Part shown: one piece after another, positions 5,772 through 11,438 of the stretch
How positions within the stretch are numbered: the first letter of the stretch is position 1
Layout: each line of letters opens with the position of its first letter
Source of the DNA: Thermoplasmata archaeon
Lineage (GTDB): Archaea; Thermoplasmatota; Thermoplasmata; Lutacidiplasmatales; UBA184
Reading direction: 5' to 3'
Assembly: GCA_030042815.1 (NCBI GenBank)
Contig: JASHYY010000104.1
Span: 1-25,082, forward strand
DNA length: 25,082 nucleotides
The notes under the pieces: model-generated
What the model saw: only the letters and a program-made list of their open reading frames with translations
Database searches by the model: none
Told to the model about the DNA's origin: nothing
Made by a program: the position numbers and the translations under genes

Positions 5772-5812
5772 CTATAGTACTTACTATAGTCTAAATTGAA
5801 ATTCTATATATT
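5772..5812 (+). promoter_or_regulatory. AT-rich promoter/operator of the phoU-like gene
   Basis: Perfect inverted repeat CTATAGTA-CT-TACTATAG (5772-5789), a third CTATA at 5804, and TATA-like TATATA(TT) at 5805-5812, about 25-30 nt before ATG 5835. Confidence 0.65.
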
Positions 5813-5834
5813 GTCACGCGGGCATTCCCTCTCG

Positions 5835-6833
5835 ATGAACCGAAGCGAAACCACCGGCCGAGGGCGACGGTCCCCGCCGGGACCGACCGACCCGTCGGCG
5901 AACTTTGCGGACGGCGACCGGTCGCCGCGGACGCGACCGGGACCGGCCGACCGCGGCCCGACCGCGACGATCCCCGTCCGTCGCGGCGAACCCCCCGAAC
6001 ACCTCTTCCGCCGGCTGCTCGGCGCCTACCTCGCCGGCGCCCGCGAGTTCGTCCTGCTCGAGCGACCGACGATCTCGGGACGCACCCGCGACGTCGTCCG
6101 CACGTTCTGCCGCCGGACGCGCCAGCCCGAGATCATCTCGGACGAGGGGGGACTCCTCCGCCTGCGCGACCTCGCCTACGAAAGCCCGATCCCGCTCGCC
6201 CAGCGCGTCGGCCGCATGGGCCGGATGGTGATCGAGTTCCACCGGGCCGCCGTCGAGAGCTGGGGCCACCTCCCGTTCGGCGAGGACGGCCAGTGGGAGG
6301 CCCGGGACGACGAGATCGACCGGGAGGCCTGGTACCTCCAGCGCCTCGCCGCGATCCAGATCGACGCGGGGACGGACGGCACGCGCGTGCTGGGCCCGTG
6401 GACCGTCGCGCGCAGCCTCGAGCGGGTCGCCGACCACGCGGCGATCCTCGCCGAGGCCGGGCGACGGCTGGTCGACCTGCCCGCCGGGTCGGCGACCGTC
6501 GTCTCCCTGCGCCAGTTCCACGCGCAGGCGATGGAGCACCTCGAGGGTGTCCTCGCCGCGACGGACGAGGGCACCGCGAACGACCTCCTCGACATGGGGG
6601 AGGCGCTCGCCGCCTCGGGCCGCTCCATCGCCGACCGCCTCCTCCCGTCGGCGGGCGGCGGCGCGACCCCGCCGGCGACCGCGGCGGCGGTCGCGCGAAT
6701 CCTCGAGTCGATCGGACGAACGATCGCCTACGCGCAGGACATCGCCCAGGTCGTCCTCGACCGGGCCCTCCCGGTCGCCGTGACGGCCGAGGGCGCCGTC
6801 CCGGTGCGGCCGCCCCTCACCGCGGCGCCGTAG
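5835..6833 (+). CDS. Archaeal PhoU-family phosphate regulator lacking a recognisable N-terminal AbrB domain
   Basis: RRLLGAYLAGAREF (typical of archaeal PhoU regulators), ARDDEIDREAW, RSLERVADHA and ESIGRTIAYAQDIAQ PhoU helical repeats. Confidence 0.75.
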   Translation: MNRSETTGRGRRSPPGPTDPSANFADGDRSPRTRPGPADRGPTATIPVRRGEPPEHLFRRLLGAYLAGAREFVLLERPTISGRTRDVVRTFCRRTRQPEIISDEGGLLRLRDLAYESPIPLAQRVGRMGRMVIEFHRAAVESWGHLPFGEDGQWEARDDEIDREAWYLQRLAAIQIDAGTDGTRVLGPWTVARSLERVADHAAILAEAGRRLVDLPAGSATVVSLRQFHAQAMEHLEGVLAATDEGTANDLLDMGEALAASGRSIADRLLPSAGGGATPPATAAAVARILESIGRTIAYAQDIAQVVLDRALPVAVTAEGAVPVRPPLTAAP

Positions 6834-6908
6834 ACCGGACGGCGAACGGGACCCCGGCGCCGCATCCGTTTTCTGGCCGCGCCGCTGCCCCCGGACCGGT
6901 CGGAACCG

Positions 6909-7445
6909 ATGGCGCGACCGCCCCGCGGGATGCACAACGTCCACATCCTGGTGCTCCGGCACGGTCCGGCCGAGGTGCGGGACCCGTCCCGGTGGCCCGA
7001 CGACGACCGGCGGCCGCTCTCGGAGAAGGGCCGCGCCCAGACGCGGCGGTCGGTGCGGGGCGTCGCCCGCCTCCTCCACTCGCTCGACCGGATCGCCACG
7101 AGTCCGGCCGACCGGGCCCTCGCGACGGCCGAGATCCTGCGGGACGCGGCCGCGCCGGCGCTCGAGGTCGACCAGTGGAGCGAGCTCGCGTCGGGCCGGC
7201 TCGCGGCCCCGATCTTCGAACGGCTCGGGCGGACCGGCCGCAGCGGCGAGACGGTCGCGCTGGTCGGCCACGACCCGACGCTCACCGAGTTCGTGGGGCT
7301 CGCGCTCACCGGAGAGGGGGTCACGCTCGTCCGTCTCGGCAAAGGCGGAGCCGCGCTCCTCGAGTTTCCGGCGGCCGTCGGCCCCGGGGCCGCGCGGCTG
7401 CTCTGGCTGCTCACGCGGAAGCAGCTTTCCGACGTCCGCGGCTGA
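6909..7445 (+). CDS. sixA: SixA-type phosphohistidine phosphatase (histidine phosphatase superfamily); alternative start at 6930
   Basis: LRHGPAE, DDDRRPLSEKGR, TSPADRALATA, LVGHDP and KGGAA motifs. Confidence 0.85.
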   Translation: MARPPRGMHNVHILVLRHGPAEVRDPSRWPDDDRRPLSEKGRAQTRRSVRGVARLLHSLDRIATSPADRALATAEILRDAAAPALEVDQWSELASGRLAAPIFERLGRTGRSGETVALVGHDPTLTEFVGLALTGEGVTLVRLGKGGAALLEFPAAVGPGAARLLWLLTRKQLSDVRG

Positions 7446-8175
7446 CGGGCGGGCGTCCCGCCCCGTCCGGGGTCGAGGGCGGAGAGGGCTCGGCCCCGTA
7501 GAGCGGTGCCAGGCGCCGCTGCACGTCGGCGTGGACCTGCTCCGGGGCCCGGTTCGCGTCGATCCGCTGGAACCCGTACTCGGCGGCGAGCCAGTCGAAC
7601 TCGTGCGAGAGCTTCTCCTGGTAGAGGAAGAAGCTCTCGAAGAGGTCGCGGGAGAGGCAGAGGTCCATCCCCGACTCCCAGTAGTCGAGCGAGCCGTACT
7701 TCGCGATCGCCCGGTGGAGCAGGATCTCCGGCCGCGCGTCCAGGAAGACGACCACGTCGGGCCGCAGCGCGAAGCCGTAGAGCTCGCGCGCCCACTCCCG
7801 CGAGGCGCCCCGGACGACGGCCCGGGCCATGAGCGTGTAGACGTAGCGGTCGGCGAGGACGGTCGAGCCCGCGGTGAGCGCCGGGACGATCTTGTTTTCG
7901 AGCTGGTCGGCGAAGTCGACGGAGTAGAGGAGCGCCATCGTCGTCGCGCCGAGCGTGTGGCCCTGCTTCGCCCGGTCGATCTCCGCGCTCACGAGGTCGG
8001 AGCGGCGGAGCCCGGTGTCGACGACCGCGTGGCCCTGGACCTCGAGCCACTCCTTGAGGAGGGCGACCTCCGTCGTCCGTCCCGAGCCGTCCGCGCCCTC
8101 GATGACGACCAGCTTTCCGGTGAGCGGCTCGCTCGGCATCCCGGGCAGGCGCGTCCCGTACGTCCTATCCGTCAT
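7411..8175 (-). CDS. Thymidylate-kinase-fold protein with degenerate P-loop; putative regulatory subunit of a heteromeric polyphosphate kinase (rPPK3)
   Basis: EGADGSGRTT (Walker A Lys to Arg), LADRY and YWESGMD. Start overlaps the upstream paralog's stop by 11 nt. Confidence 0.7.
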   Translation of the reverse strand: MTDRTYGTRLPGMPSEPLTGKLVVIEGADGSGRTTEVALLKEWLEVQGHAVVDTGLRRSDLVSAEIDRAKQGHTLGATTMALLYSVDFADQLENKIVPALTAGSTVLADRYVYTLMARAVVRGASREWARELYGFALRPDVVVFLDARPEILLHRAIAKYGSLDYWESGMDLCLSRDLFESFFLYQEKLSHEFDWLAAEYGFQRIDANRAPEQVHADVQRRLAPLYGAEPSPPSTPDGAGRPPVSRGRRKAASA

Positions 8176-8863
8176 GCACCATCCGCTCCCCGGTCGGGAA
8201 GTGGTCGAGCAGCGGGCCGAGGTTCTCCCGCAGCTCGGCTTGGATCGCCTCGACCGACCGCGTCGAGTCGACGACCGTGAACCGGTCGGTCTCCGCGATC
8301 CGGTCGTACTCCGCCTTCAGGCGCGACTGGAACCGCTCGTAGCTCTCGTGGAGGTCGTCCGAGAGGCCGAGGTCCATCCCCGCCTCGTAGTAGTTCATCT
8401 TCTGGCGCGACGCGATCTTCCGCTTGAGGGTGACCTGCACCGGGACGCGGAAGTAGAAGACGCGGTCCGGCCGCGGGGCGAACGAGTAGATCGTGCGCAC
8501 CCAGTCGGGGTCGCAGCCGCGCGCCGCGTCCCGGACGAAGGCGGTGAACGCGTAGCGGTCGCAGACGACGAGGTAGCCCGCGCGCAGCGGAGGGAGGATC
8601 CGGCGCTCGAAGCGGTCGGCGAAATCGGTCGCGTGGAGGAGGGAGAACGTCGTCGGCGTGAGCAGCCCCTTCTTCTTGCCGCGGCGGATCACGCTCGAGA
8701 CGAGCTCGGAGGAGTTCCACTCGGTCGTGAAGACGCGGTAGCCCCGGGAGGAGAGCCACTTTCCGAGGAGCATCGCCTGGGTTGATTTCCCGCTCCCGTC
8801 GAGGCCCTCGAAGACGAGCAGGCGGCCGGAGTAGCCGTGGGCCGGCAGCGACGCCTCAGGCAT
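8165..8863 (-). CDS. Thymidylate-kinase-fold P-loop kinase; putative catalytic subunit of a heteromeric polyphosphate kinase (cPPK3)
   Basis: Intact EGLDGSGKST, VCDRY, YYEAGMD and basic patches RRGKKKG and KRKIASRQK. Overlaps the ppx stop by 8 nt. Confidence 0.75.
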   Translation of the reverse strand: MPEASLPAHGYSGRLLVFEGLDGSGKSTQAMLLGKWLSSRGYRVFTTEWNSSELVSSVIRRGKKKGLLTPTTFSLLHATDFADRFERRILPPLRAGYLVVCDRYAFTAFVRDAARGCDPDWVRTIYSFAPRPDRVFYFRVPVQVTLKRKIASRQKMNYYEAGMDLGLSDDLHESYERFQSRLKAEYDRIAETDRFTVVDSTRSVEAIQAELRENLGPLLDHFPTGERMVHDG

Positions 8864-10409
8864 CGCGCAGCCGGACCTCCAGGCCGAAGACGCGCTCCAT
8901 CGGTTTGCGGGACTTCTCCGCCCAGCGGGGGGGGAGGGTCGTATCGACGGGAGCAGAAAAGCTGAGCGAGAGCGTCCGGCCGCTCCCGGTGAGCGCGAAC
9001 CGCGGCCGGGCCGGGGAGAGCATCTCGGCGACCTCGAGGATCGCCCCGAGGCGGTCGGCCGTCTCGAGGTCGGGGGGACGGATGATCGGCAGGAAGTCCT
9101 TCTTCCACTCGGAGGGCGGCGCGTCCCCCTCGTGCAGGTAGGTCGCCATCGAGGCGAGGAGGACCTCGCGCTGGTCGAGGCCCCAGATCGGGTAGTTCTG
9201 GATGAGGTAGGCCGAGTGGTGGGCGTGGTTCCACAGGTCGATCGCCGTCCCGGCGTCGTGCATCAGGGCCGCGACGCGCAGGGCCCGGGCCTCGGTCGGG
9301 CCCCCGCCGAACCGGGGCGCGAGGACGTCGAAGAGCGCGCGGGCCGTCTCCGCGACCTCCCGCCCGTGGTCGAGCCGAAACGCGAACGACTCGGCCGCCG
9401 CCGCCGCGGACCGTTCGGTCAGCACGTCGGCCGAGACGGGGAGCTTCGCCCCGATCGCCTCGAGCGCGATCCCTTCCCGGATCCCGGTCCCGGAGACGAG
9501 GATCCGGTCGACGCCGACCGCGCGCACGAGCTCCTGCAGCACGACGATCCCGGCGAGGATCACGTCCGCCCGGTCGCCCCCGATCCCCGGCACGGCCCGG
9601 CGCTTCGCGGTCGGCATCTCGGAGAGCAGCTCCCGCAGGGCCTCCATGTCGTGGTCGGTCAGAGCGTAGCCGTGGACGCGCCGCAAGGGGTACTGCCGCA
9701 TCTCGACCGACGCCCGCGCGAGCGCGCGCACCGTGCCGCCGATCCCGATCAGTCGGGTCGAGGTCCCGCCGAACGCCTCGAGCACCGACGTGAGCGTCGT
9801 GCGGACGTGCGCCCGCAGCTCGTCCCACTCCCGTCGTTTCGGCGGGTCGTGCTCGAAGTACCGCTGGAAGAGCCGGAGGACCCCGAGGGGCAGGCTCACC
9901 GAGTTGCGCAGCGTGCCGGACCGGACCTGGGCGAGCTGGAGGGAGCCGCCGCCGAGGTCGAGCACGAGGTCGTTCTCGAGCTCCCAGGCCCCCGCGACCC
10001 CGAGGTAGCCGTAGCGCGCCTCCTCGGCGCCCGAGAGGATCCGGAGCAGGACCCCCGAGGTCCGTTCCACCTCGTGGACGAACTCGGGCCCGTTCGGTGC
10101 GTCGCGCACGGCGCTCGTCGCGACGGCGAAGGTCTTCGTGACCCCGAGCGAGCGGACGATACGCGCGAACCGGCGCAGGGTGGCGACGCCCCGCGCTCTC
10201 GCCGCGTCGCTGAGTTGCCCCCCCGGCCCCGGCGCGAGCCCGAGCCGGGGGACGTCCTTCGCCTCGTAGACGGCGCGCACCGTCTCCGCCGCGGCCTCGA
10301 ACTGGACGAACCGCGCCGTGTTCGAGCCGATATCGATGACCCCGACGGTCCGGGCCTCCCCGTTCCGGTGGCGTTCCCGCTCGGCCGAAACGTGACGGGC
10401 CCGCTCCAC
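8856..10409 (-). CDS. ppx: Exopolyphosphatase Ppx/GppA with C-terminal HD-like domain
   Basis: VIDIGSNT, ATSAVRDA, GAEEARY, DLGGGSLQL, GGTVRA, RADVILAG, GIREG, then LMHDAG...HAHHSAYLI. Confidence 0.93.
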   Translation of the reverse strand: MERARHVSAERERHRNGEARTVGVIDIGSNTARFVQFEAAAETVRAVYEAKDVPRLGLAPGPGGQLSDAARARGVATLRRFARIVRSLGVTKTFAVATSAVRDAPNGPEFVHEVERTSGVLLRILSGAEEARYGYLGVAGAWELENDLVLDLGGGSLQLAQVRSGTLRNSVSLPLGVLRLFQRYFEHDPPKRREWDELRAHVRTTLTSVLEAFGGTSTRLIGIGGTVRALARASVEMRQYPLRRVHGYALTDHDMEALRELLSEMPTAKRRAVPGIGGDRADVILAGIVVLQELVRAVGVDRILVSGTGIREGIALEAIGAKLPVSADVLTERSAAAAAESFAFRLDHGREVAETARALFDVLAPRFGGGPTEARALRVAALMHDAGTAIDLWNHAHHSAYLIQNYPIWGLDQREVLLASMATYLHEGDAPPSEWKKDFLPIIRPPDLETADRLGAILEVAEMLSPARPRFALTGSGRTLSLSFSAPVDTTLPPRWAEKSRKPMERVFGLEVRLRDA

Positions 10410-10430
10410 GGAGGGGGAACGGGTCCACCT

Positions 10431-10489
10431 CTAATTAGCCTCGGGTCGCGGACCCGCGGTCCCGTGCCGGTCTCCGAATCGCTTACAAC
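10431..10489. promoter_or_regulatory. Divergent promoter region ppx / CHAD
   Basis: Palindromic CTAATTAG (10431-10438) lies about 22 nt before the ppx GTG. TTACAA (10483-10488) lies about 35 nt before the CHAD GTG. Confidence 0.45.
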
Positions 10490-10523
10490 GGAGCGCAGGC
10501 TGGGACGCCCCGGGGAGCGCGGA

Positions 10524-11438
10524 GTGCCCGAGCGGCGGAACGGGTCGAACCACGGCACCGACCGGCTGGCCCGGGAGCTGCGCCGGCTCCTGGACGAGGT
10601 CGCCCGCGGGGTCGAGGCCGTCGTCGAGCGGTCGCACGCGACCCCCGCCCTGCTCCACGACCTTCACCGCGACATGCGGCGGCTCCGGACGGGGCTCGCG
10701 GTCTGGGACCAGCTCCTCGACCGGTCGGACCGCACCGTGCTCGGGCCGATCGACCGCCGGATCCAGCGCCTCGCCCAGCTGATCGGCCAGGTGCGGGACC
10801 GCGACGTCGCGGTCGACCTCCTCGGCAGCGTCGAGGAGAAGGCGCGCTCCCGGTCGGAGCGGGAGCGGCTCGACCGCTACCGGGGGCGGCTCCACGACGA
10901 CGCCCGTACCGGTCGCGAGCTCCTGCGGGCGTTCCTGCGCTCGGAGCGGGACGCGCTGCTGTTCGACGAGGTGCGCGCGTCCCTGCGCGCACCGATCCGT
11001 CCGCGGCACCGGAACCGACTCGCGCGCCTCCTCGAGGAGCACGAGGCGCGGGGGCACGCGAAGCTCGAGTCGGCGCACCGCAGGGCGCGCAAGCACCCGA
11101 CGATGGACCGGCTCCATCGACTGCGCATCCGGGTCCGGCGGCTGCGGCAGATCTCGGACCTCACCGGGACGCTCGACCCGAACGCGGGAGGCGCGGTGTC
11201 GGCGTCGCTCCGCCGCCTGCAGCAGCAGCTCGGCCGCCTCCACGACCTCGACGTCCTCCTGGTCGGCCTCGACCCGCCGCTCCGCGACACCCGCTGGGCG
11301 AGGGCGCTCCGCAAGGAACGTCGACGGCAGCGGCGCGCCGTCGTGAAGACGATCCGCTCGTTCCGCCCCGGGCGGGCGCCACGCGCCCGAGGCGTCGGGG
11401 GCCCTTCGCTCGATTCCGGCCATCGGCCAGCTCATTAG
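10524..11438 (+). CDS. CHAD-domain polyphosphate-binding protein
   Basis: Two CHAD repeats: LHDLHRDMRRLRT...IGQVRDRDV and LHRLRIRVRRLR...LGRLHDLDV. GTG at 10524 follows GGGGAG. The 9132 start in the ORF track is an antisense-to-ppx extension. Confidence 0.88.
   Translation: MPERRNGSNHGTDRLARELRRLLDEVARGVEAVVERSHATPALLHDLHRDMRRLRTGLAVWDQLLDRSDRTVLGPIDRRIQRLAQLIGQVRDRDVAVDLLGSVEEKARSRSERERLDRYRGRLHDDARTGRELLRAFLRSERDALLFDEVRASLRAPIRPRHRNRLARLLEEHEARGHAKLESAHRRARKHPTMDRLHRLRIRVRRLRQISDLTGTLDPNAGGAVSASLRRLQQQLGRLHDLDVLLVGLDPPLRDTRWARALRKERRRQRRAVVKTIRSFRPGRAPRARGVGGPSLDSGHRPAH

Follow-up and report, generated by a model that had tools for sequence, protein, structure and literature searches.

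Tandem genes annotated as dTMP kinases behind ppx probably encode a PPK3-type polyphosphate kinase in a Thermoplasmata archaeon

Background

The question raised by contig JASHYY010000104.1 of assembly GCA_030042815.1, a stretch of 25,082 nucleotides that is the window of this analysis, is what is encoded by two adjacent genes, here called kinase A and kinase B, that lie directly behind an exopolyphosphatase gene (ppx) and are both called dTMP kinase in public annotation. The window has a GC content of 73% and belongs to a metagenome-assembled genome (MAG) of a peat/soil member of the Thermoplasmata, which is 57% complete and comprises 1.23 Mb. A first-pass annotation of the sequence assigned the DNA to a Thermoplasmatota-like archaeon, in agreement with the names of close homologues (Thermoplasmata), and interpreted the pair as a polyphosphate (polyP) kinase of the PPK3 type in place of dTMP kinases, an interpretation that is supported by PDB matches, phylogenetic trees, the gene neighbourhood and the presence of a separate tmk gene. 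The ppx-A-B trio is very probably a translationally coupled polyP operon in which A is the catalytic subunit (cPPK3) and B is its r-type partner, with tmk located elsewhere.

The precedent cited in that annotation, two TMPK-annotated genes behind ppx that make up the PPK3 of Sulfolobus, is real. The PPK3 family was described by Hofmann et al. (J Biol Chem 2026, PMC12995831; preprint 10.1101/2024.08.28.610084), who reported that Saci_2019 (cPPK3) and Saci_2020 (rPPK3) of Sulfolobus acidocaldarius form a heteromeric alpha2beta2 polyP kinase (SaPPK3), encoded in the operon saci_2017-2021 with the order sixA-ppx-c-r-CHAD, which is reversible and favours the formation of ATP from polyP and ADP. Neither Saci_2019 nor Saci_2020 phosphorylates dTMP, the true dTMPK being Saci_0893; Saci_2019 alone has measurable activity, about 10-fold lower, and Saci_2020 is inactive, the cause given being the loss of the arginine of the DRX motif (PMC12995831). 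PPK3 forms its own clade within the dTMPK superfamily and is placed by the main text mainly in Sulfolobaceae, Nitrososphaeraceae and a few bacteria (PMC12995831). Thermoplasmata are unmentioned in the main text of the paper and of the preprint, and no searchable paper pairs PPK3 with Thermoplasmat*. The PPK3 family is already known, and the trio is an additional member in a lineage unnamed in the publication's main text; the range of PPK3 is extended to Thermoplasmatota, which is an incremental gain.

Results and discussion

The ppx-A-B trio

The trio is made up of the following genes, with lengths in amino acids (aa):

8856-10409, minus strand: ppx, Ppx/GppA-type exopolyphosphatase carrying an HD-like domain III; 517 aa; first gene of the trio

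8165-8863, minus strand: kinase A, putative catalytic subunit (cPPK3); 232 aa; motifs GLDGSGKST, TEWNSS, KKK, DRY and YYEAGMD

7411-8175, minus strand: kinase B, putative r-type (partner) PPK3 subunit; 254 aa; motifs GADGSGRTT, FADQLEN, DRY and YWESGMD, and an acidic core

The ppx product matches Pfam Ppx-GppA (6e-57) and Ppx-GppA_III (5.5e-13) and scores 278.6 bits on TIGR03706 (exo_poly_only), under the cut-off of 307. The GC content at third codon positions is 0.95-0.96 in each of ppx, A and B, as expected for real genes in a window of such high GC content. The head-to-tail arrangement noted at first pass can be read directly at both junctions, which are ATGCCTGA where the start of A meets the stop of ppx (an overlap of 8 nt) and ATGACGGATAG where the start of B meets the stop of A (an overlap of 11 nt). 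From these gene overlaps alone we infer that ppx, A and B are co-transcribed. The other possible start of B, Met13, would abolish the 11-nt overlap; most homologues are full length. The last 28 or so residues of B are a low-complexity Pro/Gly/Arg tail that differs in length between homologues, which have 240 to 262 aa.

Kinase A as a cPPK3 orthologue

The best PDB match of A is the cPPK3 homologue STK_15430 of Sulfurisphaera tokodaii (2plr/5h70; E 7e-61 over 209 residues), followed by true Tmks from 1e-13. A is 50% identical to Saci_2019 (S. acidocaldarius operon, locus L018), with which it has TEWNSS, KKKxLLTP, HATDFADR, DRY and the lid in common. The intact Walker A motif and the Lys/Arg patches described at first pass are both present: the P-loop reads GLDGSGKST with Lys26, the arginine of the DRX motif is R103, and A is basic at 10/10 conserved c-type positions, defined as the ten columns with at least 80% Lys or Arg in 39 c-type rows. 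Canonical Tmks are never basic at six of these ten positions, and so the six are candidate residues of a polyP cleft. The isoelectric points are 9.05 for A, 9.25 for Saci_2019 and 5.3 for the core of B. An insertion of approximately 14 residues after the lid, which holds the segment Y-[YW]-E-[AS]-GMD, is found in PPK3 proteins and is missing from the canonical Tmks of the MAG and its relatives, so the earlier impression that this segment is foreign to true dTMP kinases was right for both A (YYEAGMD, invariant in 120/120 close homologues) and B (YWESGMD). By these sequence characters, A is clearly a cPPK3 orthologue.

Among proteins of solved structure, STK_15430 is closest to A and to B alike and aligns with them over the full length. 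Its PDB entries (2plr, 4nzy, 4rzx and 5h70) were deposited under the name "probable thymidylate kinase" and show the catalytic subunit alone; neither an r subunit nor the complex is represented in the PDB copy searched.

A separate Tmk and the phylogeny of the pair

Orthology, clade membership, motifs and gene context are demonstrated here, as is the separate tmk gene, which a search of the MAG located on another contig (G000:C6, L001:1054-1689). Its product has the motifs EPxD, F..DR and DRSFYSTLAYQG; in the PDB it matches the Tmks of Aquifex and Thermus best, and its matches at 1e-5 do not include 2plr. The canonical dTMP-site motifs (EPxD, the F..DR helix and DR[SY]..S..AYQ) are found in this third Tmk and not in A or B. 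Each of five near-complete relatives has exactly the PPK3 pair plus one separate Tmk. A and B resemble canonical Tmk (TIGR00041/PF02223) in fold, P-loop, DRX motif and lid arginine, but lack EPxD, the F..DR helix motif and DRSFYSTxAYQG, and differ further in having TEWNSS or TGLRRS, additional basic residues and the insertion of about 14 aa after the lid, and in belonging to a separate clade.

One maximum likelihood tree has 95 rows; a second has 76, among them three additional r subunits of Sulfolobales (L035-L037). PPK3 proteins split at 100/99 from an outgroup that consists of the third Tmks of the MAG and the five relatives, anchored by their PDB matches and including no experimentally characterised canonical Tmk. 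A groups among the c-type rows, and all partner subunits with an Arg in the P-loop, B included, form one r-type clade of 31 rows (support 100/99), with a subclade of 19 rows (100/97) made up of B, its relatives and four Sulfolobales rPPK3s. The phylogeny proposed at first pass, made here with canonical-type Tmks and the Sulfolobus pair, PPK2 being too distantly related for alignment by columns, sets A with the c-type, B with the r-type and the Tmks apart. With four Sulfolobales r subunits, the approximately unbiased (AU) test rejects a single clade of Sulfolobales c and r subunits (p 0.0014); it also rejects a single clade of c and r subunits of the archaeon's own family (p 0.003). Independent c/r duplications in Sulfolobales and in Thermoplasmata are rejected by these two tests, and together with the r-type clade the rejections imply that the c/r duplication took place before the pairs of Sulfolobales and of Thermoplasmata diverged.

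Kinase B as an r-type subunit with a different lesion

The best PDB match of B is also STK_15430 (2plr, 6e-35), and B is 29% identical to Saci_2020, with which it has FADQxEN, YxLTL and REW in common. As was seen at first pass, the catalytic Lys of the Walker A motif is replaced: B has Arg33 (GADGSGRTT), an Arg shared by 120/120 of its close homologues and by a fraction of 0.97 of the r-type rows. The segment after the lid reads YWESGMD in 111 of these homologues and FWESGMD in 9. Of the ten c-type basic positions, B has lost four (K64Q, R84Q, R153Y and R212Q). Loss of the DRX arginine, to which PMC12995831 attributes the inactivity of rPPK3, is not seen in B, whose lesion is instead the change of the Walker Lys to Arg. 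The reading ADGY occurs in each of the four r subunits of Sulfolobales and is confined to Sulfolobales r subunits; their P-loops have Arg in the rPPK3s of S. tokodaii and M. sedula and Lys in those of S. acidocaldarius and Acidianus. This differing lesion offers a concrete handle for probing how an r subunit works.

A second r-type flavour, within the r clade and outside the FADQLEN subclade, is common in bacterial representatives; it is exemplified by the partner subunit of locus L014 (G029:C80:37685-39039, family f15), with GTDGVGRS, TGWNRS, FADRLE and ADRYVG.

Conservation and fusion of the two subunits

The order c-then-r, often with overlapping genes, is kept in Thermoplasmatota, Sulfolobales and bacteria. 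Among 301 sampled species genomes of Thermoplasmatota, 33 are positive, and the pair is adjacent in 31/33. The c/r pair is adjacent in 4/4 Sulfolobales operons examined, and a gene of the SixA family adjoins ppx in the same 4/4. Natural c-r fusions argue for physical association of the two subunits. One such fusion, of 460 aa, occurs in Alicyclobacillus sp. SP_1 (WP_258112839.1; L039:5001-7912 of JAMCCX010000105.1; P0241/P0511), with ppx directly 3' at a 4-nt overlap and a divergent NUDIX gene 5'; in its r half the P-loop reads GSDYSGHY and DRY is retained. Another, in Ignavibacteria (P0242, P0252), joins a c half, an r-like half and an HD-like Ppx domain III.

Predicted function of the pair

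Enzyme activity, the direction of the reaction, an A:B complex and the role of B are predicted from sequence, as follows. The locus would be a polyphosphate island that reads PhoU, SixA / B, A, ppx / CHAD. A is expected to be a P-loop enzyme of the thymidylate kinase fold that binds ATP/ADP at the usual site, with a basic polyP cleft in place of the dTMP pocket, and that would transfer phosphate reversibly between polyP and ADP/ATP; by analogy with SaPPK3, it may mainly produce ATP from polyP and ADP at low energy charge. B most likely performs no catalysis, since its Walker Lys has become Arg and part of the basic cleft is lost; it would assemble with A (as alpha2beta2 in Sulfolobus) and boost the activity of A. 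Phosphorylation of dTMP would be left to the third, canonical Tmk elsewhere in the genome.

Evidence against a PPK3 operon and rival explanations

Several observations weigh against the proposed PPK3 operon or narrow what can be claimed for it. When Saci_2020 is the sole Sulfolobales r subunit, the AU test does not reject an independent duplication in Sulfolobales (p 0.235), because the branch of Saci_2020 has a length of 4.6; addition of the three other Sulfolobales r subunits gave the p value of 0.0014 cited above. An AF2 model of the Alicyclobacillus fusion (P0241), for which a fusion-only alignment of 7 rows was used after a mixed alignment was dropped (all r-type rows fell on the N-terminal half), has a pLDDT of 61.1 and a pTM of 0.62, too poor to judge the interface. 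Furthermore, the first-pass statement that there is no PPK1 or PPK2 stands for the window and fails for the genome: PPK1 was not found in the MAG or in the five near-complete relatives, but a single-domain PPK2 (PF03976, 255 bits) is encoded on contig C175 (L004:1501-2163) of the same MAG. This PPK2 probably belongs to the same organism, since the PPK2 of a same-family genome (G206) shares 64% identity with it. PPK2 was not found in 4/5 relatives searched, namely three of four same-family genomes and one genome of another family (G238), so PPK2 and PPK3 co-occur in some family members only. Given the PPK2 of the genome, PPK3 is not the sole route between polyP and nucleotides, and the possibility that it is the genome's sole polyP kinase is ruled out. 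PPK2 (PF03976) resembles A and B in being a P-loop kinase that shifts phosphate between polyP and nucleotides, and two-domain class II PPK2, with an inactive N-terminal domain, has the same logic of active and inactive paralogous modules (PMC12995831), but it is a separate family, and neither A nor B matches Pfam PPK2 (PF03976). The remaining points concern B, which reads ADRYVY, with DRY retained in 119/120 close homologues, and which still has the lid arginine and six of the ten c-type basic positions. B is as conserved as A, mean identity across Thermoplasmatota being 56% for the r-type and 59% for the c-type. With its DRY arginine, lid Arg, 6/10 basic positions and conservation, B is less securely an inactive scaffold than the r subunit of Sulfolobus, and a regulatory role in which it binds nucleotide or polyP is conceivable.

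The rival explanation built on these features of B accepts a PPK3 in which B is not a dead scaffold: its Arg-P-loop subunit would bind nucleotide and/or polyP, as an allosteric sensor of energy charge or as a second, slow catalytic site, and regulation would differ from that of SaPPK3. Equivalents of K63, R111, R115 and lid Arg148 are retained in B along with DRY, the invariance of the P-loop Arg suggests selection on the site and not decay, r-r identity is near c-c identity in Thermoplasmata's phylum as given above, unlike in Sulfolobales (59% for r-r versus 74% for c-c), and the c and r subunits of one genome are 40% identical here (B versus its own A) as compared to 28-32% in Sulfolobales. 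Yet P-loop kinases are generally crippled in phosphoryl transfer when Arg takes the place of the Walker Lys. The basic residues corresponding to K64, R84, R153 and R212 are lost in B, and in the r half of the Alicyclobacillus fusion the P-loop is more degenerate still. The rPPK3s of S. tokodaii and M. sedula carry the same Arg as B, and Saci_2020 is inactive (PMC12995831). On balance we consider this explanation unlikely. A generalisation of it, which we hold to be possible though doubtful, is that the second subunit, in Thermoplasmata and in most PPK3s of bacteria, may be an Arg-P-loop protein under strong constraint, with DRY and lid arginines, over half of the basic positions and slow evolution, and not a decayed pseudokinase; it may bind nucleotide or polyP as an allosteric energy-charge sensor or a slow second site, in which case the ancestral lesion would be the change of the Walker Lys to Arg, and loss of the DRX arginine a later speciality of Sulfolobales.

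It is much less probable that A acts alone as a homomeric kinase of polyP or of another nucleotide, with B unrelated and the tandem a relic of duplication; the activity of Saci_2019 by itself, measurable at an about 10-fold lower level (PMC12995831), is compatible with such an enzyme, but the c-then-r order with frequent overlap across Thermoplasmatota, Sulfolobales and bacteria and the natural c-r fusions argue against it. Least probable of all, and in our judgement hardly tenable, is that the annotation is right and one or both of A and B are redundant dTMP kinases of the ordinary kind. Both match PF02223 and pass the cut-off of TIGR00041 "dTMP kinase" (102.1 bits for A and 85.2 bits for B versus 83.25), but this score does not discriminate, because Saci_2019, which is no dTMP kinase (PMC12995831), also passes with 105.8 bits; the missing dTMP-site motifs, the canonical Tmk elsewhere and the 100/99 split between the clades likewise speak for a PPK3 pair. 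The predicted mislabelling by automated annotation has occurred: both genes are called dTMP kinase in public annotation, and wherever the source names the organism, the close homologues (more than 120 clusters for each kinase, at least 76% identical) go by the name "dTMP kinase [Thermoplasmata archaeon]". Since the TIGR00041 "equivalog" gives this name to both PPK3 subunits, annotation in the style of PGAP will keep mislabelling them, and the systematic naming leads to under-calling of polyP metabolism in Thermoplasmata archaea.

Gene neighbourhood and comparison with Sulfolobus

Genes associated with polyP surround the trio, so that PPX, a SixA-like protein, CHAD and PhoU are all encoded within 5796-11438:

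5796-6833, plus strand: PhoU-domain protein (Pfam PhoU 1.5e-07), upstream of SixA; phosphate-regulation context

6909-7445, plus strand: SixA-like histidine phosphatase (Pfam His_Phos_1 1.1e-09), convergent with B

10410-10523, no strand: divergent intergenic region of ppx and CHAD, 114 bp; candidate shared promoter

about 10524-11438, plus strand: CHAD-domain protein of a family associated with polyP granules (Pfam CHAD 4.3e-21), divergent from ppx

The 3' ends of the SixA-like gene and of B overlap by 35 nt (7411-7445). The start of CHAD is taken here to be the in-frame GTG at 10524, as opposed to the first start of the long open reading frame listed from 9132. An AT-rich palindrome, TCTAATTAG(C), lies at about 10430-10439 in the ppx/CHAD intergenic region, amid very GC-rich surroundings. 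Elsewhere in the window, archaeosine synthase and an Ssb-like OB protein are archaeal markers.

The locus resembles that of SaPPK3 in its gene families, in the order ppx, c, r, in its overlapping genes, in the adjacent SixA and CHAD, and in the separate canonical Tmk (Saci_0893 there, on contig C6 here). It differs in that SixA and CHAD, which are co-directional in Sulfolobus, here lie on the other strand, SixA in convergent and CHAD in divergent orientation; PPX has 517 aa with HD-like domain III as compared to 411 aa in Sulfolobus; B has DRY and a P-loop in which Lys has become Arg, whereas Saci_2020 has GIMSSGKTT and ADGY; and PPK2 is also present in the MAG. The host here is a mesophilic peat/soil member of the Thermoplasmata, not a thermoacidophilic crenarchaeon.

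Distribution

The runs that contain the stretch are all DNA metagenomes of peat and soil, with no RNA run listed, and hundreds of metagenomic variants come from peat and soil. The PPK3 pair is patchily distributed, even inside the genus: in a genome of the same genus that is listed as 100% complete (G025), kinase A as query finds nothing at E<=1e-20, no family search having been made. A 2.7-kb contig (L017:1764-2399, JAKADL010000153.1) of the MAG "Thermoplasmata archaeon WH5.bin18" encodes a cPPK3 with 61% identity to Saci_2019; this protein is nested inside the Sulfolobales c clade (100/100), which points either to horizontal transfer or to a Sulfolobales contig placed in the wrong bin. Other fusions of the cPPK3-like module (P0340, P0285, P0322, P0304) include NUDIX with cPPK3 and an MFS transporter with cPPK3 and DUF2252/APH, and a polyvalent protein of 2575 aa combines an ADP-ribosyltransferase, an inorganic pyrophosphatase and a cPPK3-like domain.

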